A DNA stretch of 64,000 bases from assembly GCF_044324785.1 (NCBI RefSeq), contig NZ_CP172127.1; one strand, written 5' to 3'. Source of the stretch: Escherichia coli. Its GTDB lineage: Bacteria; Pseudomonadota; Gammaproteobacteria; Enterobacterales; Enterobacteriaceae. The translations under genes were made by a program, and so were the position numbers. Under the pieces are notes generated by a model. The model did no database searches. It saw only the letters and a list, made by a program, of their open reading frames with translations, and was not told where the DNA came from. Every line of letters begins with the position of its first letter. Within the stretch, counting starts at the first letter, position 1. Shown here piece by piece: positions 9,848-47,191 of this stretch.

Positions 9848-10927
9848 TTAATTAATTTCAAAATCCAAATCCAGGTCGTCTTCCTTCTCATCAGTCGAAG
9901 ACCCATTTTTACGCGCCAGACTTTTCAGCACGTTCACGCAGACTGCTGTCACAACCGCCCCGACAGCCACTGCTGCGATATAACCCAGCTTGCCTTCAAC
10001 CACCGGCAGCACAATCAGACCACCCCAGCCTGCATAGCACTGCGCACCGACCAGCGCCGCAGTTACCGCACCACAAACTGAACCGACCATGATGGAAGGA
10101 ATGACACGCAGCGGATCGGCAGCGGCGAAAGGAATCGCCCCTTCAGTAACGCCAACACAGCCCATCACCAGTGCCGCCTTGCCGGTTTCGCGCTCTTCTG
10201 CGGAGAAATTTTTACGACCAATCAGCGTCGCCAGCCCCATCCCCAGCGGCGGGATACAAATACCCACGGCAGCAATGGCCACCACGGTATAAACACCCTG
10301 AGCAACGCAAATCAGCATGAAGGCATAGGCCACTTTGTTAACCGGGCCGCCCATATCGAACGCCAGCATCAGACCCATGATCACCGCCAGCATAACAATG
10401 CTGCCCTGCTGCATCCCCTGAAGCCACTGAGTCAGGCTGTTGGTCAATGCCCCCACAGGCTCGCCCAGCCCCCACATCATGACGCCAGCGGTAATCAGTG
10501 TGCCGACGATAGGAATAATGAAGATTGGCATCACCGAGCGCAGAACTTTATGCACCGGAATTTTCTTCAGGTAATGCACCACGATGCCGCCGATAATCCC
10601 GGCGATCAGCGCACCAAAAAAACCCGCACCAAAGCTGTTACCGACCCAGGCACCGATAGCGCACGGGGCCAGCGCAGAGCGTTCTGCAATGGAATAACCG
10701 ATGTAAGCGGCGAGGAAAGGCACCATCAGCGTCAACCCCGCAACGCCGATATCAAACAGTTTTTTCAGATTCGGATCGGCTACGGCATCCGGCACTGCGC
10801 CTTTGCCATACAACATGACGGAAACCGCCAGCAAAATACCGCCCGATACCACGAAGGGAATCATGTGTGAAACGCCCGTCATTAAATGCTGACGGGTATT
10901 TTTCAGGATCTGCACCAACTCATTCAT
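9848..10927 (-). CDS. frwC: PTS fructose-like EIIC permease
   Basis: 359-aa polytopic membrane ORF, immediately upstream of frwB in the same operon orientation. Confidence 0.92.
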   Translation of the reverse strand: MNELVQILKNTRQHLMTGVSHMIPFVVSGGILLAVSVMLYGKGAVPDAVADPNLKKLFDIGVAGLTLMVPFLAAYIGYSIAERSALAPCAIGAWVGNSFGAGFFGALIAGIIGGIVVHYLKKIPVHKVLRSVMPIFIIPIVGTLITAGVMMWGLGEPVGALTNSLTQWLQGMQQGSIVMLAVIMGLMLAFDMGGPVNKVAYAFMLICVAQGVYTVVAIAAVGICIPPLGMGLATLIGRKNFSAEERETGKAALVMGCVGVTEGAIPFAAADPLRVIPSIMVGSVCGAVTAALVGAQCYAGWGGLIVLPVVEGKLGYIAAVAVGAVVTAVCVNVLKSLARKNGSSTDEKEDDLDLDFEIN

Positions 10928-29021: not shown

Positions 29022-29766
29022 TTGAATTAAGGATATAATACTCGCTTCTAAGGTTGTTTCATGGTCACAGTTAACCTTCATTGTCCCCGTTGCCAGTCCG
29101 TTTAGGTTTACCGTCACGGGCAGAACCCCAAAAGACATGATCGATTCCGCGGCCGTGACTGTCACCGGGTATTTCAGCTCAGTTACTGTTACGAGCCCCG
29201 TAAACCGGGAGTTAAAGACCAAATCGCTGAAATGGCTTTCAACGGTGCCGGGGTTCGCTATACTGCCCGTACGCTGAAAATCGGCATTAATACAGTCATC
29301 CGAACTTTAAAAAACTCTCGCCACGAAGAATAACGTCATCCCCGGTCGCTCATGCTGATGTGGCACTCAACTGCGAACTTAGTCAGCAATGGAGCTTTGT
29401 CGGCAGTAAAGCGCGACAGCACTGGCTCTGGTACGTGTACAACACGAAAACTGGTGGTGTTCTGGCCTACACTTTTGGCCCCCGGACTGATGAAACCTGT
29501 CGTGAATTGCTGGCGCTGCTTACCCTTTTACCATCGGCATGTTGACCACTGACGAATGGGGTAGTTACACCAGAGAGTTACCAAAGGAGAAGCATCTGAC
29601 TGGTAAGATTTTTACTCAGCACATTGAGCGTAACAATCTGACCCTGAGAACCCGAATCAAACGTCTGGCCCGCAGAACCATCTATTTCTCGCGTTCTGTA
29701 GAACTTCATGAAAAAGTCATCGGTGCTTTTATCGAAAATATATGTTCTACTGATTGGAGTCATCAC
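29004..29766 (+). mobile_element. IS1-family insertion sequence, degenerate (insA disrupted, insB frameshifted)
   Basis: Left end ggtgatgcctccaa and right end ttggagtcatcac resemble IS1 terminal inverted repeats; ~763 bp; internal ORF fragments resemble InsB. No obvious flanking target-site duplication. Confidence 0.8.
29360..29763 (+). pseudogene. insB: IS1 transposase insB, frameshifted
   Basis: InsB-like peptides in two different frames (29360-29545 WSFVGSKARQHWLWYVY...; 29539-29853 DEWGSYTRE...IERNNLTLRTRIKRLARRTIYFSRSVELHEKVIG); the upstream insA frame is interrupted by a stop. Confidence 0.75.
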
Positions 29767-29866
29767 TCTTCTGATGAGCTTTCCTTGGATGATTACCAGA
29801 CTGAATACACAGCCAAAGATTTTTACCTCATTCTGCTCTTTTTTCTCAAATGACATATATTATATT

Positions 29867-30145
29867 TTACATCATATTCATAGGCATATGACATTCCCCC
29901 GCCCCCATTATGTCATTGTGGGTTGATGTTGGGCTTTCATAAAAAAATACATCTTTTTTTGAACTAGCATTAATTATATTTACTTTATACATTAAAATAT
30001 TTTCTCCATCTGGAAATATTTTAGCCACACAATATAAAGCAGCTAAATCCGAATTACTTAAAAATATATTGTCATCACTCATAACTCCAGCCATTAAATG
30101 ACTGGAGACTAAAGCAAGGAAATAACAACATTGTATTGCCTTCAT
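29867..30145 (-). CDS. candidate Rhs immunity protein (RhsI) for the orphan CT module
   Basis: Small AT-rich ORF immediately downstream of the orphan rhs-CT stop (30206); internal start at 30145 (MKAIQCCYFLALVSSHLMAG...) preceded by SD aagggag; ORF track's longer version starts at 30181. Function inferred from position only. Confidence 0.55.
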   Translation of the reverse strand: MKAIQCCYFLALVSSHLMAGVMSDDNIFLSNSDLAALYCVAKIFPDGENILMYKVNIINASSKKDVFFYESPTSTHNDIMGAGECHMPMNMM

Positions 30146-30205
30146 TTTAATTACTCCCTTGCCTGATAATTGTAACTCCATTCCCTTTAGCTTTGGGATT
30201 ATATT

Positions 30206-31636
30206 TTAGATAGGTGTTATTTGGTGTTCCCAAGTAACTACTGTATTCTTTTTTTCCATTCCATTCATATAAGAATTCGTTAAATCTTTGCTTGAAAAAT
30301 TTAGACTATCATAAACATCATTTTCTTTTGTTACTTTATTTCCTTTATCGTCAGAGTAAAAACCGTGAGTGTGATAATCGCCTACTCTCTCTGAACCTTC
30401 AGGGCGTTTTATATTTCGCAAGTCTACACTATCATTATCATTTGAACTTATCGGATTCATGGGGGAATATTCACCTTGCTTCTTACATATTAGTCCACCA
30501 TATTCTTTATTCTCGTTAATTGATTCTCCATTACACATTGCCAATGCAAATATTCCAATATCATCTATATTTTTTGATTTAAATTCATATAATCCTAATG
30601 GATCCATGCCATTCACCGGGCTCAGCGGATATGTATACAGGTTCCATCCCCCCTTCAGCCCAATCGGATCCTGAGTGATATACCGCCCCTGCAGCGGGTC
30701 ATAATAGCGGTGGCGGTTGTAATACAGGCCGGACTCCTCATCATACTGCTGCCCCGGCAGGCGGATGAGCTGCTGCAGTTGATGCGGGTTCTCTTCATTC
30801 AGCAGATTGCCCCACTCATCGTATTCTGCGCACCATTCTGTTGCCCCTTCCGTGCTGACAAGCGCCAGCGGCAGGCCGCGATGGTCGCAGTGGTACAGGT
30901 GGATTTTTCGCGCCGGCGTGTACACCGGGTCCATCTGGTTTTGCATCTGCTCCACCGTCAGGCCGCACGATGCCAGCCAGCGGCGGCTTTCCTCACTCAC
31001 CCGGTCAGCCAGGATTTCACTTTCCAGCCGGTCGAGCATCTGCACCAGCACCGGCGGGAACACCACACTGCCACCGTCTTCACCGCCGGACTGCTGAAGC
31101 GCATCCGCCAGGCTGCGGCGCTGCGTTTTCGCCAGCTCACCGGTGGCGGTTTCGACCCTGATGAGTGGCGTGAAGCTCCCCGGCTGATAAACCGTCTGGA
31201 TGCGGGTTCTGTCGTTCTGTATCGTGGTCAGCCGGTCGCCGTCCCAGCCGTACCAGGTCACTTCCGGTTTCCGTGACAGCGACATCCAGCCCGTCAGGTC
31301 CCGTTCACGCCGCCACACCCGTTTTGCCACCCTGCGGCCCAGCGGGTCGTAAAGATAGCGACTTTCGACCAGCGGCTCTGCATATTGTGTCCGCGTGTAG
31401 TGCACCAGCCGGTGCTGACTGTCGTAATGGTACCGGTGAGTCCGCTCATCATCCGTGCGGATAACCCCTTCCGGGATGAGGTCGGTTTTCTCTGTCAGCC
31501 TGCCGTGACGGTCATACCGGTAAAGATAGTGCGCGTCACGGGCGATACGGTTATCCGGCCACATGCTGAGGGTGCTGTCCGGGTGCAGCTCCGGGTCGGG
31601 CAGGCGGTTGCCTGCCGGGTCCGTGGCATACGGGAT
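30206..31636 (-). CDS. orphan Rhs C-terminal module: 3' part of the rhs core plus a distinct C-terminal toxin domain (5'-truncated gene)
   Basis: ORF 30206-31564 (452 aa); Rhs-core homology continues upstream to ~31636 with an in-frame stop beyond. Core ends with ...[28 protein letters not shown] (DPxGL), followed by a 127-aa unique AT-rich C-terminal domain ([10 protein letters not shown]...[12 protein letters not shown]...). Confidence 0.8.
30642..31636. repeat. ~1 kb direct repeat (rhs core 3' region), copy A, near-identical to 34963-35957
   Basis: Base-by-base comparison of the two intervals shows the same sequence with only a handful of substitutions at a constant offset of 4321 bp; the ORF track shows identical antisense peptides at 31273-31464 and 35594-35785. 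Confidence 0.9.
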
Positions 31637-31678
31637 ATCAATGCCCAGGTTACATATAATAAGAGCAATTAACTTAAT

Positions 31679-32005
31679 TTATTTGTTTATAATGCGCTTA
31701 CTTAATACAAACCATTGAATATACCCTCCTGACAGAAAATAAAGCCATGTTATTATCGCCATAATATACTTACTATCAATCCTTACGCCAATAATGTCTG
31801 AAACAGTCCCTATAAATATTAGAGCAATAAAGAATACTATGCCTGTTGGAAAACATATTACCATCATTCCATAAGACATGAGACTAATTAACTCGCTCAC
31901 ATCACGAGTGGAGTCTAATAGTGAAAGTCTATGCATGGAAAAGAATAGTATTAAAAGCGATAAAGCCAGCCATGTAGCTCTGAATAAAAAAATAATACAT
32001 TTCAT
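31679..32005 (-). CDS. small hydrophobic membrane protein (about 3 TM segments); candidate orphan immunity protein
   Basis: 108-aa AT-rich ORF MKCIIFLFRATWLALSLLILFF... between the H-repeat element and the orphan rhs fragment; function inferred from context only. Confidence 0.45.
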   Translation of the reverse strand: MKCIIFLFRATWLALSLLILFFSMHRLSLLDSTRDVSELISLMSYGMMVICFPTGIVFFIALIFIGTVSDIIGVRIDSKYIMAIITWLYFLSGGYIQWFVLSKRIINK

Positions 32006-32039
32006 TACATCACTCCGGTGAATACAAATCTAATAAAGC

Positions 32040-33330
32040 GTCCAATGTTATTTCCGGAGCACTTCATCTTACATGTTTCTAAAGAATCATTAGACCAGTC
32101 AGGGCAAGATTACGAAAGCCCGCTCCCCGCAAGGACTGACGCGAGATAGTTTCTGTCCATGGCTGCTTTTCGCATCTTACGTCTTAACCCTGCCTTGAAT
32201 ACCTTATCATTCGTCAAAATATTAATAGCAATGTGCCGTATCCCTGAAAATAATTCTGCTGCGTTTCCTCTTCTTATTTTGCAGTCGTCTTCATTCATTA
32301 CCACGTCCAGACGCCAGTGCAGCTTATTCTCCACGTGCCAGTGGTTTCGGATTGCTGTGGCGAACTTCTCAGCGGTTAAATCAGCAGAACTGATATAATA
32401 TCTGACCGTCATTTCTGGCTCTTTCTTTTATTCTGCTATTATTGACCGAAAGGAGACTGCCACGCATAATTTTTCAGTCCTTTCTATTCAAATGTAAAAT
32501 CAATAAGTTCATCAGCGACATCGCAAACAATATGAAGACGGATTTCTTCTCTGCCGTGACTCTTTTCACTAATTGCGTAACTGTCATGCTCTGGATTATT
32601 TAATTCTTTCAGCGGAAATGTTTCCTCAAAGGCTTTATTCAACCGCCCCTGGTTTCCTTTTACAGCGAATAAGTAATCACCACCCTGTTTTTGTATCTTC
32701 TCTGCAATATCTTTCTGGCAACCTATCGCATCAGTTGTGATGATTTTCCCTTTAATATACAAAATGTTAAGAAGTTCAGGGATAGCTGTGATCTCATTAG
32801 ATTTCTCATCCGTCCTGATCTGCCCCAGGACCAGAATGTGCATTGTTGAGAACGCACTAATAACATGAATCGCTCCCCTTCGGCGACTCTTATCATAAGA
32901 GTGTCGGAGCATTTTTCCATCAATTGCAATGACGTCTTTATCATCTGAAGAATGGCAGTCACGCATCCAGTTAATAAAGCACTCATGAAATTTTGCAGGG
33001 CTGATACAGGATACAACTCTGGCAATGGTATCGTGGACAGGAATACCATTTTCAAAATCACCGTATTGTTTTAAAAAATCGAGATGTGTTTCCCCAAAAT
33101 CCTCTATATCTTCCCAACCTTCTGCACCCGAAATAACGGCACAAATAGTCAACAGTAGAATATCCGATAATTTATGTTCCACTTTCCAGGCTTGTCTGTA
33201 ATCGGGGATAATAGAAATATGCTCCATCAATTTTTTAAGTTCCATTTTGTTCTCCTTAATTATGTAAGGAGTATTTGATCATGTATAAGCAATAAAAAAC
33301 AGCTTTAGGTAATGAGGAATATCTCAATTT
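32040..33330 (-). mobile_element. H-repeat (H-rpt) element, ISAs1-family, with a frameshifted transposase; boundaries approximate
   Basis: Two consecutive minus-strand ORFs in different frames (32484-33245 [55 protein letters not shown]...; 32110-32412 [44 protein letters not shown]...) together resemble the ~378-aa H-repeat-associated ISAs1-family transposase of E. coli Rhs elements. Confidence 0.8.
32110..33245 (-). pseudogene. ISAs1-family (H-repeat) transposase, split by a frameshift near 32413-32486
   Basis: N-terminal 253-aa and C-terminal 100-aa pieces are in different reading frames separated by ~70 bp. Confidence 0.8.
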
Positions 33331-33348
33331 TCAAACATAAAATGCGAA

Positions 33349-33935
33349 TTATTTAGTACAAAAAAGCAGCGTTACGTGATCTTTCCCTGGCATGTCATTA
33401 GATGAACCAGTTATACAACCCTCGGAACAGAATCGAGGTCCTAAAGACGGACCAAAAGCGTTTAAACAACTATGTATTGAAAATCCATTACGATTATAAG
33501 TTCCTGTATTAACTGACGGTACTAATCGTATGCCGTCAGGTTTTCTATTGCTTGCTCCCGGGTCATTAACATTCCAACTCCATAGGCCTTGAGGTATTGG
33601 CCCTCTATTTATAAATGTGTACAACGGGGATTATTTTTACATTGCATATTATTACCAGAAGCGACTGGAATACTAAGCACATCATAAAAATTATCATCAC
33701 CTGGTATATCTGAAACACACGAAAGCATACCTAAAGTTATGCTGTATAAACAGGTGGCTAATCCCAAGGGGATCGATTCCAGAAATCGGGTTCAACGGAT
33801 ACTGATAAAAATTCCACCTACCTTCCAGCCCAATCGGAGCCTGAGTGTTATACCGCCCCTGCTGCGGTTAATGTTACCGATAATAGTTATAGTACAGCCC
33901 TGATTCATCATCATACTACTGCTGCGGCAGTCTGA
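33349..33935 (-). pseudogene. degenerate orphan rhs remnant (diverged core 3' end plus disrupted C-terminal region)
   Basis: 33800-33935 is a diverged, indel-containing copy of the rhs core 3' end (compare 34963-35100); downstream frames are interrupted; the 91-aa ORF 33349-33624 is in a different frame. Confidence 0.6.
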
Positions 33936-33948
33936 TGAATTATTGCTT

Positions 33949-34410
33949 TTACGGATTCTCCTTATTCTTCCTTCTATCCATTCGCTTTAGCTTTTTGAGA
34001 TCTTGAAGTTTGCTCTTTGCATCAATATTACCGTTATTTACAGCGAATTCCATCCAATAAATAGCTTTATTCAAATTATAATGTTCTGATAATATTGGAT
34101 TTGTATCCGATAAAAAAACCCCATAATTAAACTGCGCTGTAACATTCCCCTGAGATGCTGATCTTTCTAAGTATCGCAATTGTTTGTAAATGTTATTTTT
34201 AGTAAAGCAGTAATATTGATATAGTCGAAATGATGCCTCTGAATCACCATGTTGTGATTTATACTTCAGTTTCATCAACTTTTCTTCACTTAAATCATAG
34301 GTCATTGCTGTAGACCCCATCATACTTTCGTTTTGTTTTATTTTCACATCAGCACCATGCAATTGAAAAATAAAAGAAAAATAAAAAAATAGTAACAAGC
34401 ATGCTTTCAT
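33949..34410 (-). CDS. Sel1-like repeat protein with N-terminal signal peptide; candidate cognate Rhs immunity protein (RhsI)
   Basis: 153-aa AT-rich ORF starting 12 bp downstream of the main rhs stop; signal-like N-terminus MKACLLLFFYFSFIFQLHGA; Sel1/TPR-like motifs (...YQYYCFTKNNIYKQLRYLERSASQGNVTAQFNYGVFL...). Confidence 0.65.
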   Translation of the reverse strand: MKACLLLFFYFSFIFQLHGADVKIKQNESMMGSTAMTYDLSEEKLMKLKYKSQHGDSEASFRLYQYYCFTKNNIYKQLRYLERSASQGNVTAQFNYGVFLSDTNPILSEHYNLNKAIYWMEFAVNNGNIDAKSKLQDLKKLKRMDRRKNKENP

Positions 34411-34421
34411 ACATCTACAAC

Positions 34422-37400
34422 CTATCTTATATCACTGGGTTTTTCTGGCGTACCTTGCATATTAGAAATGGGGTGCCCAGATGGCCCATATGTTATCCAA
34501 TTACCAAGGTCTTTTGTTGTTATAGCCATTAGATCCTTATTTGAATTAAGGTTCGTTGGTGCTGTTAGCACTGTATCCATTTTTAACTTACCATTAGTTC
34601 CTCGCCCCCACCACGTCCATAGCGTGTCAGGTCCTATTACATTTGTATGTAACTCTTTAGCTAATTGGCTAGCAAATGAATTTTGTCCTTTACCTGTATT
34701 ACAAGAAAATAACCAAACTGTCATCCCATCTTTATAATTCCCATCAAATTTAATTAGATATGCTAGATCTTTAGCTGTCATGATACTGCGCGTTGCGGAT
34801 TCAATAGATGTGGGGGTACCATGCCCCCCGATTGTGAAAACGCCTGGGATATTAATCTCATCAGCTACAGAATGGATAAGATCACTTTCGGGGTATAAAT
34901 TTATATCAACCAAACCTTGCGGATCTACATTTATGACCGGATTCAACGGATACTGATAAAAATTCCATCCCCCCTTCAGCCCAATCGGATCCTGAGTGAT
35001 ATACCGCCCCTGCAGCGGGTCATAATAGCGGTGGCGGTTGTAATACAGGCCGGACTCCTCATCATACTGCTGACCCGGCAGGCGGATGAGCTGCTGCAGC
35101 TGGTGCGGGTTCTCTTCATTCAGCAGGTTGCCCCACTCATCGTATTCTGCGCACCATTCTGTTGCCCCTTCCGTGCTGACAAGCGCCAGCGGCAGGCCGC
35201 GATGGTCGCAGTGGTACAGGTGGATTTTTCGCGCCGGCGTGTACACCGGGTCCATCTGGTTTTGCATCTGCTCCACCGTCAGGCCGCACGATGCCAGCCA
35301 GCGGCGGCTTTCCTCACTCACCCGGTCAGTAAGGATTTCACTTTCCAGCCGGTCGAGCATCTGCACCAGCACCGGCGGGAACACCACACTGCCACCGTCT
35401 TCACCGCCGGACTGCTGAAGCGCATCCGCCAGGCTGCGGCGCTGCGTTTTCGCCAGCTCACCGGTGGCGGTTTCGACCCTGATGAGTGGCGTGAAGCTCC
35501 CCGGCTGATAAACCGTCTGGATGCGGGTTCTGTCGTTCTGTATCGTGGTCAGCCGGTCGCCGTCCCAGCCGTACCAGGTCACTTCCGGTTTCCGTGACAG
35601 CGACATCCAGCCCGTCAGGTCCCGTTCACGCCGCCACACCCGTTTTGCCACCCTGCGGCCCAGCGGGTCGTAAAGATAGCGACTTTCGACCAGCGGCTCT
35701 GCATATTGTGTCCGCGTGTAGTGCACCAGCCGGTGCTGACTGTCGTAATGGTACCGGTGAGTCCGCTCATCATCCGTGCGGATAACCCCTTCCGGGATGA
35801 GGTCGGTTTTCTCTGTCAGCCTGCCGTGACGGTCATACCAGTAAAGATAGTGCGCGTCACGGGCGATACGGTTATCCGGCCATGCGCTGAGGGTGCTGTC
35901 CGGGTGCAGCTCCGGGTCGGGCAGGCGGTTGCCCGCCGGGTCCGTGGCATACGGGATGCGGATATCAAGGTTCGCTGCCGTGGTGTGGACGCCGGTCAGC
36001 CTGCCGGTGTCGCTGTAGCTGTAACTCCGGGTCTGGCGCGGGCTGCTGATGCGGATGAGTTCGCCGTTGTCGTTCCAGGTGTAATCGCGGTCATACTGCA
36101 GGCTGTTCAGGTGCTGGCTCTGTAACTGCCCGGCAGGGGTGTAAGCGGTGGTGAGTTCATAACGGCCGAAGCTGCGCAGCGTTTCCCGGTGCAGGCGGTC
36201 GCGGGTGTACTCCACCAGCGGTGTGTCGCCGAGTTTCATGCCTGCCAGCCAGCCGCTGCCGTAAGTCAGCCATTCCACGGCGGGCAGGCTGTCCGGTATA
36301 CAGCGGTTCGCCAGCCCCTGCGCGTTGTACGCATGTCTGGTCTCATGCTGCCAGACCAGTGCTTCCGTCTGCGGGTGATGCACCGTCTGGCGCTCACCGG
36401 TCAGGCGGCCTTTCTCATCATACCCGTAATGCACCGTCACCCGGTGGCCTTCGCTGAGATGGCTGATGCCTGTCAGCCAGCCGCGTTCGTCATACTGCCA
36501 CTGCTCTGCAGGTTCACCCTTCACGGTACGCTGCGTGATGCGGTCTGCTTCGTCATAGTGCCAGTGGGTGACCAGCCCCTCATCCTCGCTGCGGATAAGT
36601 TTGCCGGTCAGGTCGTGGTGATAACGCTGTGTACGGCCGTCAAAGCCGGTTTCCTGTATCAGACGGTCAAGTACATCGTAACGGAAGGTGGTGTGGCTGC
36701 CGTTTTCACTGGTCAGGCGGATGACCCGTCCGGCAGCATCGTATTCCATACTGCGCGTCAGACCACCCTGCGTGGTACGGATGGCCTTTCCCCACGTATC
36801 GTACTGTGTCCCGTTTCTGCTGCCGTCCGGGGCAATGACGGCGGTCAGGTCACCGGCGGCGTTGTATTCATACCGCGTTTCATGGCCCTGCATGTCTTTC
36901 ACCGCAATTAACTGTCCACGGCTGTCGTATGCGCGGTACTGGCTCAGGCCTTCCTCGCGGTGCACCGCCGTCACCTGACCAAAACGGTCATGGTCATAAC
37001 GGGTTACATAACCGGAACAGTCAGTGACGGTCAGCAACTGACCGTAACGGCTCCATGTCATGGTTTTCCGGCTGCCGGTGGCATCTTCCGTTGCGCAGGG
37101 TAAGTCACTGTGTGGATTATCATAACGGTAGCGGGTGATATCGCCGTTGTGTGCGGTTTCCTGAATCAGACGGCCGGATTCATCATATTCCCGGCGCAAC
37201 TCCAGCCCGTCAGTCCCGGTGGCTGACGTTAACTGGTTGTGGTGGTTATAGTAAAACGCCGATGCCCTGCCATCCGGTGTGGTGATGCGCGTGATGAGTC
37301 CCGTCACCACATCCGGGCTGTACTCAGTCGTCCGGCCTGCGGCATCCGTCTGTGCCTTAAGCCTGCCCACCGCGTCAAACTGACTCTGCGTGACGCTGCC

Positions 37401-38651
37401 GTCCGCGTGTTCCTTTTTCACCACCCGCTTCAGCCCGCCTTCGCCCTGCGTGTGCAGGACTTCACGGCGGTCCAGGCTGTCGGTGATGGTGATGTGGTCT
37501 TTCTCATACTGATACGTGTAGCTTAAGCCTGCCGGGTTTAGCTGTTCTGTCACCCGCCCGTCACTGTCGTAACGGTAACGGATTTCCGGCCGGCCCGTGT
37601 GACGGTGCGCCACCATCCGGCCCCGGTATTTATCATCGTAAGTAAAGCTGCGCACCTGTGTGCCGCTGCGGTCATACACCGCCGCCAGTTCGCCGCGTGG
37701 CGTCCAGCCATAGCGTACCAGCGGCGCGGCTGGCAGGTTGTCCGGATATTCCGGGTCGTGCGTCAGCCACACGGCAGACAGACGGATGCCGTTGTCCCGG
37801 CCATATTCGGTGTAACCCGGCAGGGTATCAGGAAAAGCGGACGGTTCCGCCCCGCCGGAAATGGCCTGCTGCCGGGCCTCTTCTGCCCGCAACGCCTGCG
37901 TGGTCAGTACCAGCCGGAAGTGACGCCCGGCACCATCCGTCACGCCGGTGATTTCGCCGCTGAATTCGCCGCCAGCCTCACGGTGGAACGTCTGTGTGCG
38001 CCCGAAGCGGTCCACCAGCCCGGTCAGTACCCGGTACGGCGGCAGTGGCGCAGGCAGCACCTCATCCGCCTCCGGCACCCGCTCACACCAGCCGAGTACC
38101 CACCACGGCCCCTGCGGACTGTTCGTCGCCAGATAACGATGCGGACTCAGGCGAAGCTCTTCCGGCAGCGCCTGCCAGAGTGCGGCCAGCCGGTGACCTT
38201 CATCCAGTTTCGCCACGCCGCCGCGCACCAGCCAGAGTGACTCGCTGCGGCTGTAACCGTCCTCACCGGGAAACAGGTGCTCAAAATACAGGCTTCTGCC
38301 GCCGTTATCACTGAGTATCAGTGTGTTATCGCGCAGCTGTAAGCGGATATCCGCAGGCATTTTCCAGCCGGGGCCGAGGCTCCCCACCGGCGCGGGCGTT
38401 TTTGTCCGGTAACTGCTGTAGGTGCGGGAGAGGATGAACGGCAGCGGGCCGGGCAGGGCAAGGTCGGTTTCTCCGGGAAGGACCTTCGCACCGAGCAGCG
38501 GATTGACCGGATGGCCGGACGTCACCCCGCCGGGGCACACCGAACAGGCCACGCCGGTGGGGGCACCAATACGTACCCCGGCTGAACCCTGAACAATGCT
38601 ACCGCCATACTGCGTCATGTCGCCCTGACGCGCCGCCGGTTTTCCGCTCAT
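34422..38651 (-). CDS. rhs: full-length Rhs protein (PAAR-like N-terminal domain, YD-repeat core, DPxGL, unique C-terminal toxin domain)
   Basis: 1409-aa ORF; N-terminus [42 protein letters not shown] typical of E. coli Rhs; many YD/RYxYD repeats; core ends ...[11 protein letters not shown]; 162-aa C-terminal domain ([10 protein letters not shown]...FTIGGHGTP...[10 protein letters not shown]...) not recognised by me. Confidence 0.95.
34963..35957. repeat. ~1 kb direct repeat (rhs core 3' region), copy B, near-identical to 30642-31636
   Basis: See copy A; lies within the main rhs gene. Confidence 0.9.
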
Positions 38652-38810: not shown

Positions 38811-39062
<252 letters not shown>

Positions 39063-39066
39063 CTAA

Positions 39067-41424
<2,358 letters not shown>

Positions 41425-41579
41425 ACCGCTCACGATGCGAGGCGGATCGAAAAATTCAATATTCATCACACTTTTCATGAAAATTCTGTAACCGTTTTCA
41501 CGCGCTATCTGCTAAAAATGTTGCCGATGTGAAGTAAACATGGATGTAGTACGCCTGACGTGCCAGGCGAGGAGTGAGT

Positions 41580-42605
41580 GTGAAAGCGAAGAAGCAGGAA
41601 ACTGCCGCGACCATGAAAGACGTTGCCCTCAAGGCAAAAGTCTCTACAGCGACTGTCTCCCGAGCATTAATGAATCCCGATAAAGTCTCCCAGGCCACCC
41701 GTAATCGGGTTGAAAAAGCGGCCCGGGAAGTGGGTTATTTACCGCAGCCTATGGGGCGCAACGTCAAGCGTAATGAATCCCGCACCATTCTGGTGATTGT
41801 CCCGGATATCTGCGATCCCTTCTTTAGCGAAATTATTCGCGGTATCGAAGTTACGGCGGCAAATCACGGATATCTGGTGCTGATTGGCGACTGTGCGCAT
41901 CAAAATCAGCAGGAAAAAACCTTTATCGATTTGATCATCACCAAGCAAATTGATGGCATGTTGCTGCTGGGTTCAAGGCTGCCGTTTGATGCCAGCATTG
42001 AGGAACAGCGTAATCTGCCGCCGATGGTGATGGCGAACGAATTTGCACCGGAACTGGAGCTGCCTACAGTTCATATCGACAATCTGACCGCCGCATTTGA
42101 TGCAGTAAATTATTTATATGAGCAAGGGCATAAACGGATTGGCTGTATAGCCGGTCCCGATGAGATGCCGCTGTGTCACTACCGCCTGCAAGGTTACGTT
42201 CAGGCGCTGCGTCGCTGCGGCATTATGGTTGATCCGCAATACATCGCCCGTGGTGACTTCACCTTCGAAGCCGGAAGCAAAGCAATGCAACAACTGCTTG
42301 ATCTTCCACAACCGCCTACTGCTGTCTTCTGCCATAGCGATGTGATGGCGCTCGGCGCACTTTCTCAGGCAAAACGCCAGGGGCTGAAAGTCCCGGAAGA
42401 CCTTTCCATAATCGGTTTTGATAACATCGACCTGACGCAATTTTGTGATCCGCCGCTGACAACCATCGCGCAGCCGCGTTACGAAATCGGTCGGGAAGCT
42501 ATGCTGTTATTGCTTGATCAAATGCAGGGGCAACACGTTGGCAGTGGCTCTCGTTTAATGGACTGCGAACTTATCATCCGGGGATCAACACGCGCGTTAC
42601 CTTAA
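41580..42605 (+). CDS. cytR: LacI-family transcriptional repressor CytR
   Basis: ORF from 41574; remembered CytR MKAKKQETAATMKDVALKAKVSTATVSRAL starts at GTG 41580 (341 aa). Confidence 0.93.
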   Translation: MKAKKQETAATMKDVALKAKVSTATVSRALMNPDKVSQATRNRVEKAAREVGYLPQPMGRNVKRNESRTILVIVPDICDPFFSEIIRGIEVTAANHGYLVLIGDCAHQNQQEKTFIDLIITKQIDGMLLLGSRLPFDASIEEQRNLPPMVMANEFAPELELPTVHIDNLTAAFDAVNYLYEQGHKRIGCIAGPDEMPLCHYRLQGYVQALRRCGIMVDPQYIARGDFTFEAGSKAMQQLLDLPQPPTAVFCHSDVMALGALSQAKRQGLKVPEDLSIIGFDNIDLTQFCDPPLTTIAQPRYEIGREAMLLLLDQMQGQHVGSGSRLMDCELIIRGSTRALP

Positions 42606-42696
42606 AGTAAACCTTTAAGACTGCCGTGACTGGTCAAAGGCCCGCCGCTTAAGTAACATGGCGGGCTGACGAACGAATAAATACAGCGAAACGATA

Positions 42697-43656
42697 GTGG
42701 CACAACGAGATTATGTACGCCGCAGCCAACCGGCACCTTCGCGGCGAAAAAAGAGCACCTCACGGAAAAAGCAACGAAATCTGCCTGCGGTTTCTCCCGC
42801 TATGGTCGCTATTGCTGCCGCCGTTCTTGTGACCTTTATCGGTGGTCTGTACTTCATTACGCATCACAAGAAAGAAGACTCCGAGACGCTGCAAAGCCAG
42901 AAAGTGACCGGAAACGGACTACCACCAAAACCAGAAGAACGCTGGCGCTACATCAAAGAGCTGGAAAGTCGCCAGCCGGGTGTGCGTGCGCCTACAGAAC
43001 CTTCTGCCGGTGGTGAAGTGAAAACGCCGGAGCAACTGACACCAGAACAACGCCAACTTCTTGAACAAATGCAGGCCGATATGCGCCAGCAGCCAACGCA
43101 GCTGGTTGAAGTTCCGTGGAATGAGCAGACGCCGGAACAGCGTCAGCAAACGCTACAGCGCCAGCGTCAGGCGCAGCAATTAGCGGAGCAGCAACGCCTG
43201 GCTCAGCAGTCGCGTACGACTGAACAAAGCTGGCAGCAGCAGACGCGTACGTCGCAAGCCGCACCGGTACAGGCGCAACCGCGCCAGTCTAAACCGGCTT
43301 CTACTCAGCAGCCGTACCAGGATCTGCTGCAAACTCCTGCGCACACGACCGCGCAGTCGAAGCCGCAGCAAGCTGCGCCGGTTGCTCGTGCCGCTGACGC
43401 GCCAAAACCGACGGCGGAGAAAAAAGACGAACGCCGCTGGATGGTGCAGTGCGGTTCGTTCAGAGGCGCGGAACAGGCAGAGACGGTACGTGCTCAGCTG
43501 GCGTTTGAAGGCTTTGACTCGAAGATCACCACCAACAATGGCTGGAATCGTGTGGTCATTGGCCCGGTGAAAGGCAAAGAGAACGCAGACAGCACCCTCA
43601 ATCGCTTGAAGATGGCGGGTCATACAAACTGCATTCGGCTCGCCGCCGGGGGTTGA
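42697..43656 (+). CDS. ftsN: cell division protein FtsN (SPOR domain)
   Basis: 319-aa ORF (GTG start) MAQRDYVRRSQPAPSRRKK; Gln/Pro-rich linker; C-terminal SPOR-like region. Confidence 0.95.
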   Translation: MAQRDYVRRSQPAPSRRKKSTSRKKQRNLPAVSPAMVAIAAAVLVTFIGGLYFITHHKKEDSETLQSQKVTGNGLPPKPEERWRYIKELESRQPGVRAPTEPSAGGEVKTPEQLTPEQRQLLEQMQADMRQQPTQLVEVPWNEQTPEQRQQTLQRQRQAQQLAEQQRLAQQSRTTEQSWQQQTRTSQAAPVQAQPRQSKPASTQQPYQDLLQTPAHTTAQSKPQQAAPVARAADAPKPTAEKKDERRWMVQCGSFRGAEQAETVRAQLAFEGFDSKITTNNGWNRVVIGPVKGKENADSTLNRLKMAGHTNCIRLAAGG

Positions 43657-43680
43657 AACCCTCAAAATCCCCCCCATCTA
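43652..43680 (+). promoter_or_regulatory. candidate sigma-32 heat-shock promoter of hslVU
   Basis: TTGAAA followed 13 bp later by CCCCATCTA, matching the sigma-32 consensus (CTTGAAA ... CCCCATnT), ~70 bp upstream of hslV; a gccccgtac...gtacggggt hairpin lies in the leader. Confidence 0.55.
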
Positions 43681-43748
43681 TAATTGCATTATGCCCCGTA
43701 CTTTTGTACGGGGTTTGTACTCTGTATTCGTAACCAAGGGGTCAGCTC

Positions 43749-44279
43749 GTGACAACTATAGTAAGCGTACGCCGTAACGGCCATGTGGTCATCGCTGGTG
43801 ATGGTCAGGCCACGTTGGGCAATACCGTAATGAAAGGCAACGTGAAAAAGGTCCGCCGTCTGTACAACGACAAAGTCATCGCGGGCTTTGCGGGCGGTAC
43901 TGCGGATGCTTTTACGCTGTTCGAACTGTTTGAACGTAAACTGGAAATGCATCAGGGCCATCTGGTCAAAGCCGCCGTTGAGCTGGCGAAAGACTGGCGT
44001 ACCGATCGCATGCTGCGCAAACTTGAAGCACTGCTGGCAGTCGCGGATGAAACTGCATCGCTTATCATCACCGGTAACGGTGACGTGGTGCAGCCAGAAA
44101 ACGATCTTATTGCTATCGGCTCCGGCGGCCCTTACGCCCAGGCTGCGGCGCGCGCGCTGTTAGAAAACACTGAACTTAGCGCCCGTGAAATTGCTGAAAA
44201 GGCGTTGGATATTGCAGGCGACATTTGCATCTATACCAACCATTTCCACACCATCGAAGAATTAAGCTACAAAGCGTAA
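43749..44279 (+). CDS. hslV: ATP-dependent protease subunit HslV
   Basis: 176-aa ORF (GTG start) [30 protein letters not shown]. Confidence 0.97.
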
Positions 44280-44288
44280 GGATCTCCC

Positions 44289-45620
44289 ATGTCTGAAATG
44301 ACCCCACGCGAAATCGTCAGCGAACTGGATAAGCACATCATCGGCCAGGACAACGCCAAGCGTTCCGTGGCGATTGCTCTGCGTAACCGCTGGCGTCGCA
44401 TGCAGCTCAACGAAGAGCTGCGCCATGAAGTGACCCCGAAAAATATCCTGATGATCGGCCCGACCGGTGTCGGTAAAACTGAAATCGCCCGTCGTCTGGC
44501 TAAGCTGGCGAATGCGCCGTTCATCAAAGTTGAAGCGACCAAATTCACCGAAGTGGGCTATGTCGGTAAGGAAGTGGATTCTATTATTCGCGATCTGACC
44601 GATGCCGCCGTGAAAATGGTACGCGTCCAGGCTATCGAGAAAAACCGTTATCGCGCTGAAGAACTGGCAGAAGAACGTATTCTCGACGTGCTGATCCCAC
44701 CTGCTAAAAACAACTGGGGACAGACCGAACAGCAGCAGGAACCGTCCGCTGCTCGTCAGGCATTCCGCAAGAAACTGCGTGAAGGCCAGCTTGATGACAA
44801 AGAAATCGAGATCGATCTTGCCGCAGCACCGATGGGCGTTGAAATTATGGCTCCTCCGGGCATGGAAGAGATGACCAGCCAGCTGCAGTCCATGTTCCAG
44901 AACCTGGGCGGCCAGAAGCAAAAAGCACGTAAGCTGAAAATCAAAGACGCCATGAAGCTGCTGATTGAAGAAGAAGCGGCGAAACTGGTGAATCCGGAAG
45001 AGCTGAAGCAAGACGCTATCGACGCTGTTGAGCAGCACGGGATCGTGTTTATCGACGAAATCGACAAAATCTGTAAGCGCGGCGAGTCTTCCGGTCCGGA
45101 TGTTTCTCGTGAAGGTGTTCAGCGTGACCTGCTGCCGCTGGTAGAAGGTTGCACCGTTTCCACCAAACACGGGATGGTCAAAACTGACCACATTCTGTTT
45201 ATCGCTTCTGGCGCGTTCCAGATTGCGAAACCGTCTGACCTGATCCCGGAACTGCAAGGTCGTCTGCCAATCCGTGTTGAGCTGCAGGCACTGACCACCA
45301 GCGACTTCGAGCGTATTCTGACCGAGCCGAATGCCTCTATCACCGTGCAGTACAAAGCACTGATGGCGACTGAAGGCGTAAATATCGAGTTTACCGACTC
45401 CGGTATTAAGCGCATCGCGGAAGCGGCATGGCAGGTGAACGAATCTACCGAAAACATCGGTGCTCGTCGTTTACATACCGTTCTGGAGCGTTTAATGGAA
45501 GAGATTTCCTACGACGCCAGCGATTTAAGCGGTCAAACCATCACTATTGACGCAGATTATGTGAGCAAACATCTGGATGCGTTGGTGGCAGATGAAGATC
45601 TGAGCCGTTTTATCCTATAA
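44289..45620 (+). CDS. hslU: ATP-dependent protease ATPase subunit HslU
   Basis: 443-aa [40 protein letters not shown]; Walker [16 protein letters not shown]. Confidence 0.97.
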
Positions 45621-45649
45621 TCGCGTTCAATCATTTTCATCATTGTTTG

Positions 45650-45675
45650 ATGGGGCTGAAAGGCCCCATTTTTAT
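45650..45675 (+). terminator. rho-independent terminator after hslU
   Basis: tgggg-ctgaaagg-cccca hairpin followed by a T-rich tail. Confidence 0.6.
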
Positions 45676-45686
45676 TGGCGCGTATT

Positions 45687-46613
45687 ATGACTGAACAACA
45701 AATTAGCCGAACTCAGGCGTGGCTGGAAAGTTTACGACCTAAAACCCTCCCCCTCGCCTTTGCTGCAATTATCGTCGGGACGGCGCTGGCATGGTGGCAA
45801 GGTCACTTCGATCCGCTGGTCGCCCTGCTGGCACTGATTACCGCCGGGCTATTACAGATCCTTTCTAACCTCGCCAATGATTACGGCGATGCGGTAAAAG
45901 GCAGCGATAAACCTGACCGTATCGGACCGCTACGCGGCATGCAAAAAGGGGTCATTACCCAGCAAGAGATGAAACGGGCGCTCATTATTACCGTCGTGCT
46001 CATCTGTCTCTCCGGGCTGGCACTGGTTGCAGTGGCGTGCCATACGCTGGCCGATTTTGTCGGTTTCCTGATTCTTGGCGGGTTGTCGATCATTGCCGCT
46101 ATCACCTACACCGTGGGCAATCGTCCTTATGGTTATATCGGTCTGGGTGATATTTCCGTACTGGTTTTCTTTGGCTGGTTAAGCGTCATGGGCAGCTGGT
46201 ATTTACAGGCTCATACATTGATTCCGGCGCTGATCCTTCCTGCGACCGCATGCGGCTTGCTGGCAACGGCAGTACTGAACATTAATAACCTGCGTGATAT
46301 CAATAGCGACCGCGAAAATGGCAAAAACACGCTGGTGGTGCGCTTAGGTGAAGTGAATGCGCGTCGTTATCATGCCTGCCTGCTGATGGGCTCTCTGGTG
46401 TGTCTGGCGCTGTTTAATCTCTTTTCACTGCATAGCCTGTGGGGCTGGCTGTTCCTGCTGGCGGCACCATTACTGGTGAAGCAAGCCCGTTATGTGATGC
46501 GGGAAATGGACCCGGTGGCGATGCGACCGATGCTGGAACGCACTGTCAAGGGAGCGTTACTGACTAACCTGCTGTTTGTTTTAGGGATATTCCTAAGCCA
46601 GTGGGCAGCATAA
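45687..46613 (+). CDS. menA: 1,4-dihydroxy-2-naphthoate octaprenyltransferase
   Basis: ORF from TTG 45675; ATG at 45687 gives MTEQQISRTQAWLESLRPKTLPLAFAAIIVG (308 aa), UbiA-family membrane prenyltransferase. Confidence 0.93.
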   Translation: MTEQQISRTQAWLESLRPKTLPLAFAAIIVGTALAWWQGHFDPLVALLALITAGLLQILSNLANDYGDAVKGSDKPDRIGPLRGMQKGVITQQEMKRALIITVVLICLSGLALVAVACHTLADFVGFLILGGLSIIAAITYTVGNRPYGYIGLGDISVLVFFGWLSVMGSWYLQAHTLIPALILPATACGLLATAVLNINNLRDINSDRENGKNTLVVRLGEVNARRYHACLLMGSLVCLALFNLFSLHSLWGWLFLLAAPLLVKQARYVMREMDPVAMRPMLERTVKGALLTNLLFVLGIFLSQWAA

Positions 46614-46705
46614 CTGACAAATATCAATTAACAATTGATGATTTTGCCAACAGCCTACATAGCGCGATATACTGAAAATTCTCGCAGCAACTGAATGTTA
46701 AGCCT

Positions 46706-47191
46706 ATGAAATACGATACTTCCGAGCTTTGTGACATCTATCAAGAAGATGTTAACGTCGTGGAACCGCTGTTCTCCAACTTTGGCGGACGGGCGTCGTT
46801 TGGCGGACAAATAATCACGGTAAAATGTTTCGAGGACAACGGGTTGCTGTACGATCTGCTCGAACAGAATGGCCGTGGTCGTGTTCTTGTCGTCGATGGC
46901 GGTGGTTCTGTTCGTCGCGCACTGGTCGATGCTGAACTGGCGCGTCTGGCAGTACAAAATGAATGGGAAGGTCTGGTCATTTACGGCGCGGTGCGTCAGG
47001 TAGATGACCTGGAAGAGTTGGATATCGGCATCCAGGCGATGGCGGCAATTCCGGTTGGTGCCGCTGGCGAAGGCATTGGCGAAAGCGATGTCCGCGTCAA
47101 TTTTGGCGGTGTTACCTTCTTCTCCGGCGACCATCTTTATGCCGACAATACCGGGATTATTCTTTCAGAAGATCCGCTGGATATTGAATGA
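46706..47191 (+). CDS. rraA: regulator of RNase E activity A
   Basis: 161-aa [49 protein letters not shown]. Confidence 0.95.

Follow-up and report, generated by a model that had tools for sequence, protein, structure and literature searches.

An H-repeat with a disrupted transposase gene in an Escherichia coli Rhs element

Two open reading frames in place of one transposase gene

The window analyzed here is a 64,000-nt stretch of the Escherichia coli contig NZ_CP172127.1, in which the transposase gene (ORF-H) of an H-repeat (H-rpt) is found on the minus strand as two open reading frames instead of one. A gene divided in this way raises the question of what split it, whether a ribosomal or transcriptional frameshift, an error in the sequence, or genuine decay, and of what the element can still do. 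As argued below, the copy is, with high confidence, a full-length dead H-repeat (ISEc1-like, ISAs1 family) carried inside an Rhs element.

Extent and family of the element

The following features delimit the element and its two transposase fragments:

32098..33391, minus strand: full-length H-rpt / ISEc1-like (ISAs1-family) element, 1,294 bp, placed by blastn against the K-12 H-rpt copies
33372..33391, minus strand: left terminal inverted repeat, GCCAGGGAAAGATCACGTAA, which agrees with the reverse complement of the right end at 16 of 20 positions
32098..32117, minus strand: right terminal inverted repeat (reverse complement GTCAGGGCAAGATTACGAAA), where the K-12 H-rpt homology ends
32484..33245, minus strand: N-terminal fragment of ORF-H, 253 aa, with PF13808 and the first two thirds of the DDE domain
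32110..32412, minus strand: C-terminal fragment of ORF-H, 100 aa, opening at an internal Met codon (EPEMTVRYY)

By blastn, K-12 H-rptB (the yhhI element) matched window positions 33391..32099 at 95.4% with one gap, and K-12 H-rptC2 matched 33393..32100. The span of 32040..33330 given in the original prediction covered most of the element, but the true extent is 32098..33391, reaching ca. 60 bp further to the right. Elements of the ISAs1 family are described in ISfinder as ~1.2 to 1.5 kb long and bounded by imperfect terminal inverted repeats of ~14 to 22 bp. The window H-rpt has both the size (1,294 bp) and the bounds, an imperfect inverted repeat (GCCAGGGAAAGATCACGTAA and GTCAGGGCAAGATTACGAAA, 16 of 20 bases matching) of which both ends have been kept. 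Its GC content is ~0.38 to 0.41, versus 0.59 to 0.67 for the rhs core. No second H-rpt copy that could serve as a source of transposase was found within the 64,000 nt of the window.

The domain content bore out the assignment to the H-rpt/ISAs1 family made beforehand. In the Pfam search, the 253-aa piece carried PF13808 (3.8e-34, residues 8 to 94) followed by positions 3 to 130 of the 200-position PF01609 profile, and the 100-aa piece matched positions 140 to 200 of the same profile, which together give the ISAs1 order of DDE_Tnp_1_assoc (PF13808) and then DDE_Tnp_1 (PF01609). The NCBIfam ISAs1 model NF033564, with a cut-off of 70 bits, recognized the 253-aa piece (2.9e-85, 286.2 bits, profile 1 to 221) and, separately, the 100-aa piece (1e-27, 97.2 bits, profile 250 to 314). 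Both are unmistakably parts of one transposase, and the family match does not arise by chance. When the three lesions described below were reversed in silico, the repaired product was 378 aa long and scored 408.5 bits over the whole NF033564 profile (1 to 314). As originally described, the two pieces lie in different frames (253-aa ORF in frame 0 and 100-aa ORF in frame 2, counted from the ATG at 33245) with ca. 70 bp between them, 71 bp by our count (32413..32483). However, this "gap" separates ORFs only, and the homologous coding sequence continues unbroken across it. The catalytic DDE domain is divided between the fragments. Judged by analogy with IS4-like DDE enzymes, using the Pfam and NCBIfam coordinates and knowledge of the family, the two catalytic aspartates would lie in the 253-aa fragment and the glutamate of the HWxVEN motif in the 100-aa fragment.

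Three lesions within 60 bp

To locate the damage, the window copy was aligned with the intact K-12 yhhI (378 aa) and with the copy found at the same site in the E. coli genome TUM14771. Compared with yhhI, the window ORF-H has three lesions within 60 bp:

32484..32486, minus strand: nonsense substitution at W254, TGG to TAG, which ends the 253-aa ORF; absent from the TUM14771 ortholog
between 32473 and 32472, minus strand: 1-bp deletion of the G of codon AAG (K258), CTGAAGAAATT changed to CTGAAAAATT; shared with TUM14771
32428..32430, minus strand: nonsense substitution at Q273, CAA to TAA, in the reading frame that encodes the C-terminal part

The frameshift to which the split had been attributed is thus a real 1-bp deletion, and the comparison with intact H-rpt copies that had been suggested for finding it puts the missing G between 32473 and 32472. 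It is not the only cause of the split, since there are three lesions and the 253-aa ORF is ended by the TGG-to-TAG change, 13 nt upstream of the deletion. In place of the one continuous ORF of ~378 aa that an autonomous copy would have, the window holds two stop codons and a 1-bp deletion. ORF-H of the window is a pseudogene from which no full-length transposase can be made, and no finding speaks against this status.

The element had been described as probably immobile. It does lack a transposase of its own, but "non-autonomous" fits it better than necessarily immobile because both terminal inverted repeats survive. In principle, an intact paralog could act on it in trans. E. coli genomes have a median of six H-rpt places each, and such a helper may therefore exist in the source genome. 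Transposition of an H-rpt has reportedly never been observed (PMC3032704).

The original prediction also left room for a programmed or slippage-based frameshift, and a split transposase naturally invites the thought that programmed ribosomal frameshifting or transcriptional slippage fuses the two ORFs, as in IS1 or IS3. Such mechanisms are at work in several IS families, and through the deletion five A residues now stand in a row. Nevertheless, we could exclude this explanation, and give it practically no chance of being correct, because stops flank the indel in both frames, a +1 shift would be needed, and the intact relatives are continuous. In frame 0 the TAG comes before the indel, and in the frame that would be entered the TAA comes after it, so that no shift yields a full-length product. 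The 253-aa and 100-aa ORFs do not overlap but are 71 bp apart, and the deletion site has no slippery heptamer of the form X XXY YYZ. A 1-bp deletion calls for a shift of +1 or -2, whereas the programmed frameshifts of IS elements are -1, and five A residues are too few for efficient slippage of the RNA polymerase. Nor is the arrangement conserved. The intact relatives have a single 378-aa ORF, both K-12 yhhI, which was examined directly, and many cluster members of 378 aa (one of them recorded on at least 1,000 contigs), while the indel is not found family-wide, being restricted to a single locus in 148 of 5,426 genomes.

Authenticity of the sequence

A sequencing or assembly error would be another way to split a gene that is in reality one continuous ORF, with the indel or the stops as artifacts. 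Single-base indels beside short runs of A, such as the one in CTGAAAAATT, are a common type of error, and at the same locus the complete genome of E. coli SCU-109 (L012, NZ_CP051733.1 52561-55615) has many extra frame breaks resembling assembly noise; there the H-rpt ORF is in four pieces and the neighboring genes are frameshifted as well, probably for that very reason. For the window, however, this possibility, also raised beforehand, was excluded because six independent assemblies and 148 complete genomes agree, and its likelihood is negligible. The 1,294-bp element is 100% identical to the window in five independent draft assemblies, a sixth differs by one base outside the lesion region, and all six hold the exact 101-nt junction with the three lesions. 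The 1-bp deletion is present in 148 complete genomes, and of the three lesions only this one is an indel, the other two being base substitutions. Seven NCBI contigs have the exact 253-aa protein on record; the six of these that were retrieved belong to at least four WGS projects and all have the same gene order.

The best identity of the window to the 5,426 complete genomes, only 98.2 to 99.0%, raised the suspicion that the window had been mutated artificially. We rejected this idea, given that the differences fall at third positions and are biased toward transitions. In priA, cytR, ftsN, hslVU, and menA, the window and the nearest complete genome differ at 80 coding positions, 73 of them third codon positions, and the 81 differences over this stretch consisted of 61 transitions and 20 transversions. 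None of these genes has an internal stop in the window. We therefore regard the window as natural sequence, judging by its pattern of substitutions. Along 39000..47000 (priA to rraA), none of 5,425 complete RefSeq E. coli genomes exceeded 99.0% identity. Given this ceiling and the natural third-position pattern of substitution, the E. coli lineage of the window would be one that complete genomes sample only thinly.

History of the lesions

The 16 kb around the H-rpt are collinear, at 98.2% identity, with a set of E. coli chromosomes in which PGAP labels the ortholog "ISAs1 family transposase, frameshifted." A query made of the 3' part of the H-rpt and its junction with ybfB found this junction in 148 of the 5,426 complete E. 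coli genomes. A 54-mer centered on the deletion, which cannot seed a megablast match on undeleted copies, was likewise found in exactly 148 of the 5,426, at one place in each. Hence, the deletion appears to be present in all 148 complete genomes that have an H-rpt in this Rhs position, the two sets having been equated because their counts agree and a few coordinates were checked. As far as seed-based detection can tell, none of the other H-rpt copies, at ~28,000 places, has the deletion. A 55-mer representing the undeleted ancestral allele at the locus (G restored, with TUM-type flanking SNPs) had no perfect match in any genome. The deletion is thus an old, inherited, and locus-specific lesion, as it was found in 148 genomes, at one place in each, and nowhere else. 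For the same reason, it can serve as a clean, locus-specific marker of common descent across ~150 sequenced E. coli.

The two nonsense codons have a different history. The TUM14771 ortholog has neither and its ORF runs to ~270 aa, and the window H-rpt allele had no exact match in the complete genomes (best, 98.9%). For these two reasons the stops at W254 and Q273 are best read as later than the deletion and private to the lineage of the window.

A sequence of events can be proposed on this basis. ORF-H (378 aa) would first have been inactivated by the loss of one G in codon 258, and this deletion would have been passed on to every sampled genome with an H-rpt at the locus. In the lineage of the window, the pseudogene would then have drifted and gained the stops at W254 and Q273, which flank the deletion. 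The two visible ORFs would be the debris of this process, an N-terminal piece ended by TAG and a C-terminal remnant opening at an internal ATG.

Mosaic segment and drift

The window and TUM14771 copies are 98.1% identical, with 24 substitutions that are distributed unevenly. Codons 70 to 128 (32862..33038) hold 14 of the 24, of which 13 are synonymous, and here paralogs from other places in E. coli resemble the window more closely (97.2%) than the TUM14771 ortholog does (93.4%). This suggests gene conversion between H-rpt copies. Outside these codons there are seven nonsynonymous changes (two of them the stops) and two synonymous ones, an excess that is expected for a gene free of selection.

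Over the N-terminal 253 codons, synonymous changes number 14 and nonsynonymous ones 6. We considered purifying selection on the fragment that they encode as the cause and rejected it, as 13 of the 14 synonymous changes sit in the mosaic codons 70 to 128. We read the synonymous excess as conversion and not as selection because it is clustered where the window is nearer to the paralogs.

Is the 253-aa product maintained?

K-12 ybfD (H-rptC3) is also 253 aa long and ends at the same TGG-to-TAG codon, W254. A comparison of window positions 32484..32486 with positions 10852-10854 of the ybfD locus (L004) found the identical TAG with different SNPs on its flanks. Because these neighboring SNPs differ, the change at W254 seems to have arisen twice, independently, as far as the alignment can tell. 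The sharing of the TAG is an unexplained coincidence, which we count against our best explanation.

One way to account for such recurrent truncation is that the 253-aa fragment is expressed and selected, either because it acts in trans to inhibit H-rpt transposition or, for example, as a DNA-binding protein that has been domesticated. The fragment retains its start codon, its upstream region, and a complete PF13808, and its codons 1 to 253 have more synonymous than nonsynonymous changes. The synonymous excess, however, is limited to the conversion-like segment, with mostly nonsynonymous changes elsewhere, and the 253-aa form is not conserved at the locus, where the ORF ends elsewhere in 148 related genomes (at ~270 aa in TUM14771). 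Moreover, TGG is among the few codons that one transition turns into a stop, and its recurrence is not very improbable. Promoter-like sites were at the level of shuffled sequence. We therefore consider an expressed and selected fragment very unlikely. In the same vein, that truncation at codon 254 may reflect selection for a DNA-binding domain with a partial catalytic core, acting as a trans-dominant inhibitor of H-rpt transposition or as a domesticated Rhs regulator, is an idea to which we give little credence. An Rfam search over 30000-35000 gave no match, and neither promoter-like nor terminator-like sites were more frequent than in shuffles.

Position of the element within the Rhs locus

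The decayed H-repeat belongs to an Rhs element located between rpmE/priA and metJ. Read along the minus strand, the order is rhs core, sel1-repeat gene, Rhs tip fragment, H-rpt, ybfB, and a truncated rhs fragment:

38651..34422, minus strand: rhs core gene, first in the gene order
34410..33949, minus strand: sel1-repeat gene, second in the gene order
33392..33624, minus strand: left flank, an orphan RhsA-type toxin-tip fragment that the H-rpt truncates 19 codons short of the natural stop
32005..32097, minus strand: right flank, the end of an RhsC-type toxin tip (last 30 codons and stop), leading into ybfB; 98% identical to the 3' end of K-12 rhsC
31679..32005, minus strand: ybfB, 108 aa, a small gene located after rhsC in K-12
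31564..30206, minus strand: N-terminally truncated rhs fragment, 452 aa, matching the RHS core profile at 937-1261; its low-GC tip has the annotation DUF4329

The DNA that follows rhsA/yibG in K-12 matches the left flank at 98.7% identity. The uninterrupted tip ORF of K-12 reads ...SNDM/QKLNELIFSEPDSTLTVTD to its stop, and an Imm57-family gene comes next. The tip on the right flank matches instead the end of K-12 rhsC (WSNDSLETCK...TGVM and stop), and its homology starts at 32098, directly after the H-rpt match. The H-rpt thus sits at a joint between modules of two Rhs lineages, since an RhsA-type sequence lies to its left and an RhsC-type tail with ybfB to its right.

Insertions of ISAs1 elements duplicate 8 to 10 bp of the target. 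No target-site duplication was found at the ends of the window H-rpt, where the flanks read ...CTAATGACAT on one side and CTGGTCTAAT on the other. The lack of a duplication is expected at a rearrangement joint, and it argues against a simple recent insertion but not against membership of ISAs1. A candidate duplication was considered in the octamer TCTAATGA (coding for S-N-D), which occurs at 33395..33402 and 32087..32094, 3 to 4 bp outside each end of the element; joining the two flanks also restores an ORF. Simple insertion with target duplication was nonetheless rejected. The octamer is native to both parental sequences, being already present in the RhsA downstream tip and at the rhsC 3' end of K-12, and the flanks do not come from one continuous sequence. 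Two routes would lead to such a joint, recombination of one H-rpt copy with another or an insertion with a subsequent deletion next to it. Among the complete genomes, 168 have the left junction and 148 the right one, and therefore variant arrangements exist (~20 genomes). At present the window H-rpt would most plausibly have a passive role, as portable homology or as a scar at an Rhs rearrangement joint, because its flanks come from two Rhs tip modules and lack a target-site duplication.

We take the Rhs element between rpmE and metJ to be of the RhsF type, and the annotation "dsORF-f3" at the ortholog agrees with this. Zhao and Hill (1995) are said to have described the RhsF element as a reshuffling of RhsA and RhsC components; their paper and that of Zhao et al. 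(1993) are reportedly the original ones on RhsF and H-rpt.

Some further observations concern the surroundings. The small ORF at 29867..30181 corresponds to "dsORF-f3" and forms, with the rhs fragment at 30206..31564, a further orphan module of this Rhs element that resembles a toxin/immunity pair. Between the Rhs element and yiiX, at ~29100..29860, there is an IS1-like relic, whose ortholog PGAP labels "IS1H family transposase, frameshifted." In the window its insB-like sequence forms two ORFs, of 61 and 104 aa, so that the relic may have more lesions than the usual programmed frameshift alone. The annotation "tlde1 domain-containing" is attached to a distantly related sequence (86.9% identity to the RhsA-type tip), and the exact Rhs protein of the window is WP_395765588.1.

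Comparison with known systems

The element is a decaying, non-autonomous IS relic of a known kind, and the frameshift at the locus had already been flagged by PGAP in related genomes. In annotation, the two ORFs should be given as one ISAs1-family pseudogene with internal stops and a frameshift, neither as two genes nor as a gene with a programmed frameshift. The chimeric flanks illustrate the long-standing idea that H-rpts lie at the joints of reshuffled Rhs toxin/immunity modules. Beyond the corrected annotation of the window H-rpt, the importance of these findings is small.

The likeness to IS1 insAB' and IS3 orfAB amounts to two consecutive transposase ORFs in different frames. Unlike those systems, the window H-rpt has no ORF overlap and no heptamer, its shift is in the wrong direction, stops flank its indel, and the split is not conserved. 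K-12 H-rptB/yhhI, the intact reference copy, is the same element, with 95.4% nucleotide identity over the full 1.29 kb and the same ends, inverted repeats, and ORF layout. However, yhhI is continuous over 378 aa, whereas the window copy has the W254 stop, the 1-bp deletion at codon 258, and the Q273 stop. TUM14771 and 147 other complete genomes share with the window the chromosomal site, the flanking genes, and the 1-bp deletion; the TUM14771 copy differs in lacking both nonsense codons, and codons 70 to 128 are mosaic between the two copies. Defective H-rpt copies in Rhs elements are textbook features of K-12. Like ybfQ, ybfL, and ybfD (H-rptC1 to H-rptC3) of the K-12 RhsC element, the window copy is a decayed H-rpt kept inside an Rhs element, although H-rptC3 (ybfD) differs from it by an internal deletion of ~313 bp that begins ~10 nt after the stop, by other flanking SNPs, and by its location at another locus.
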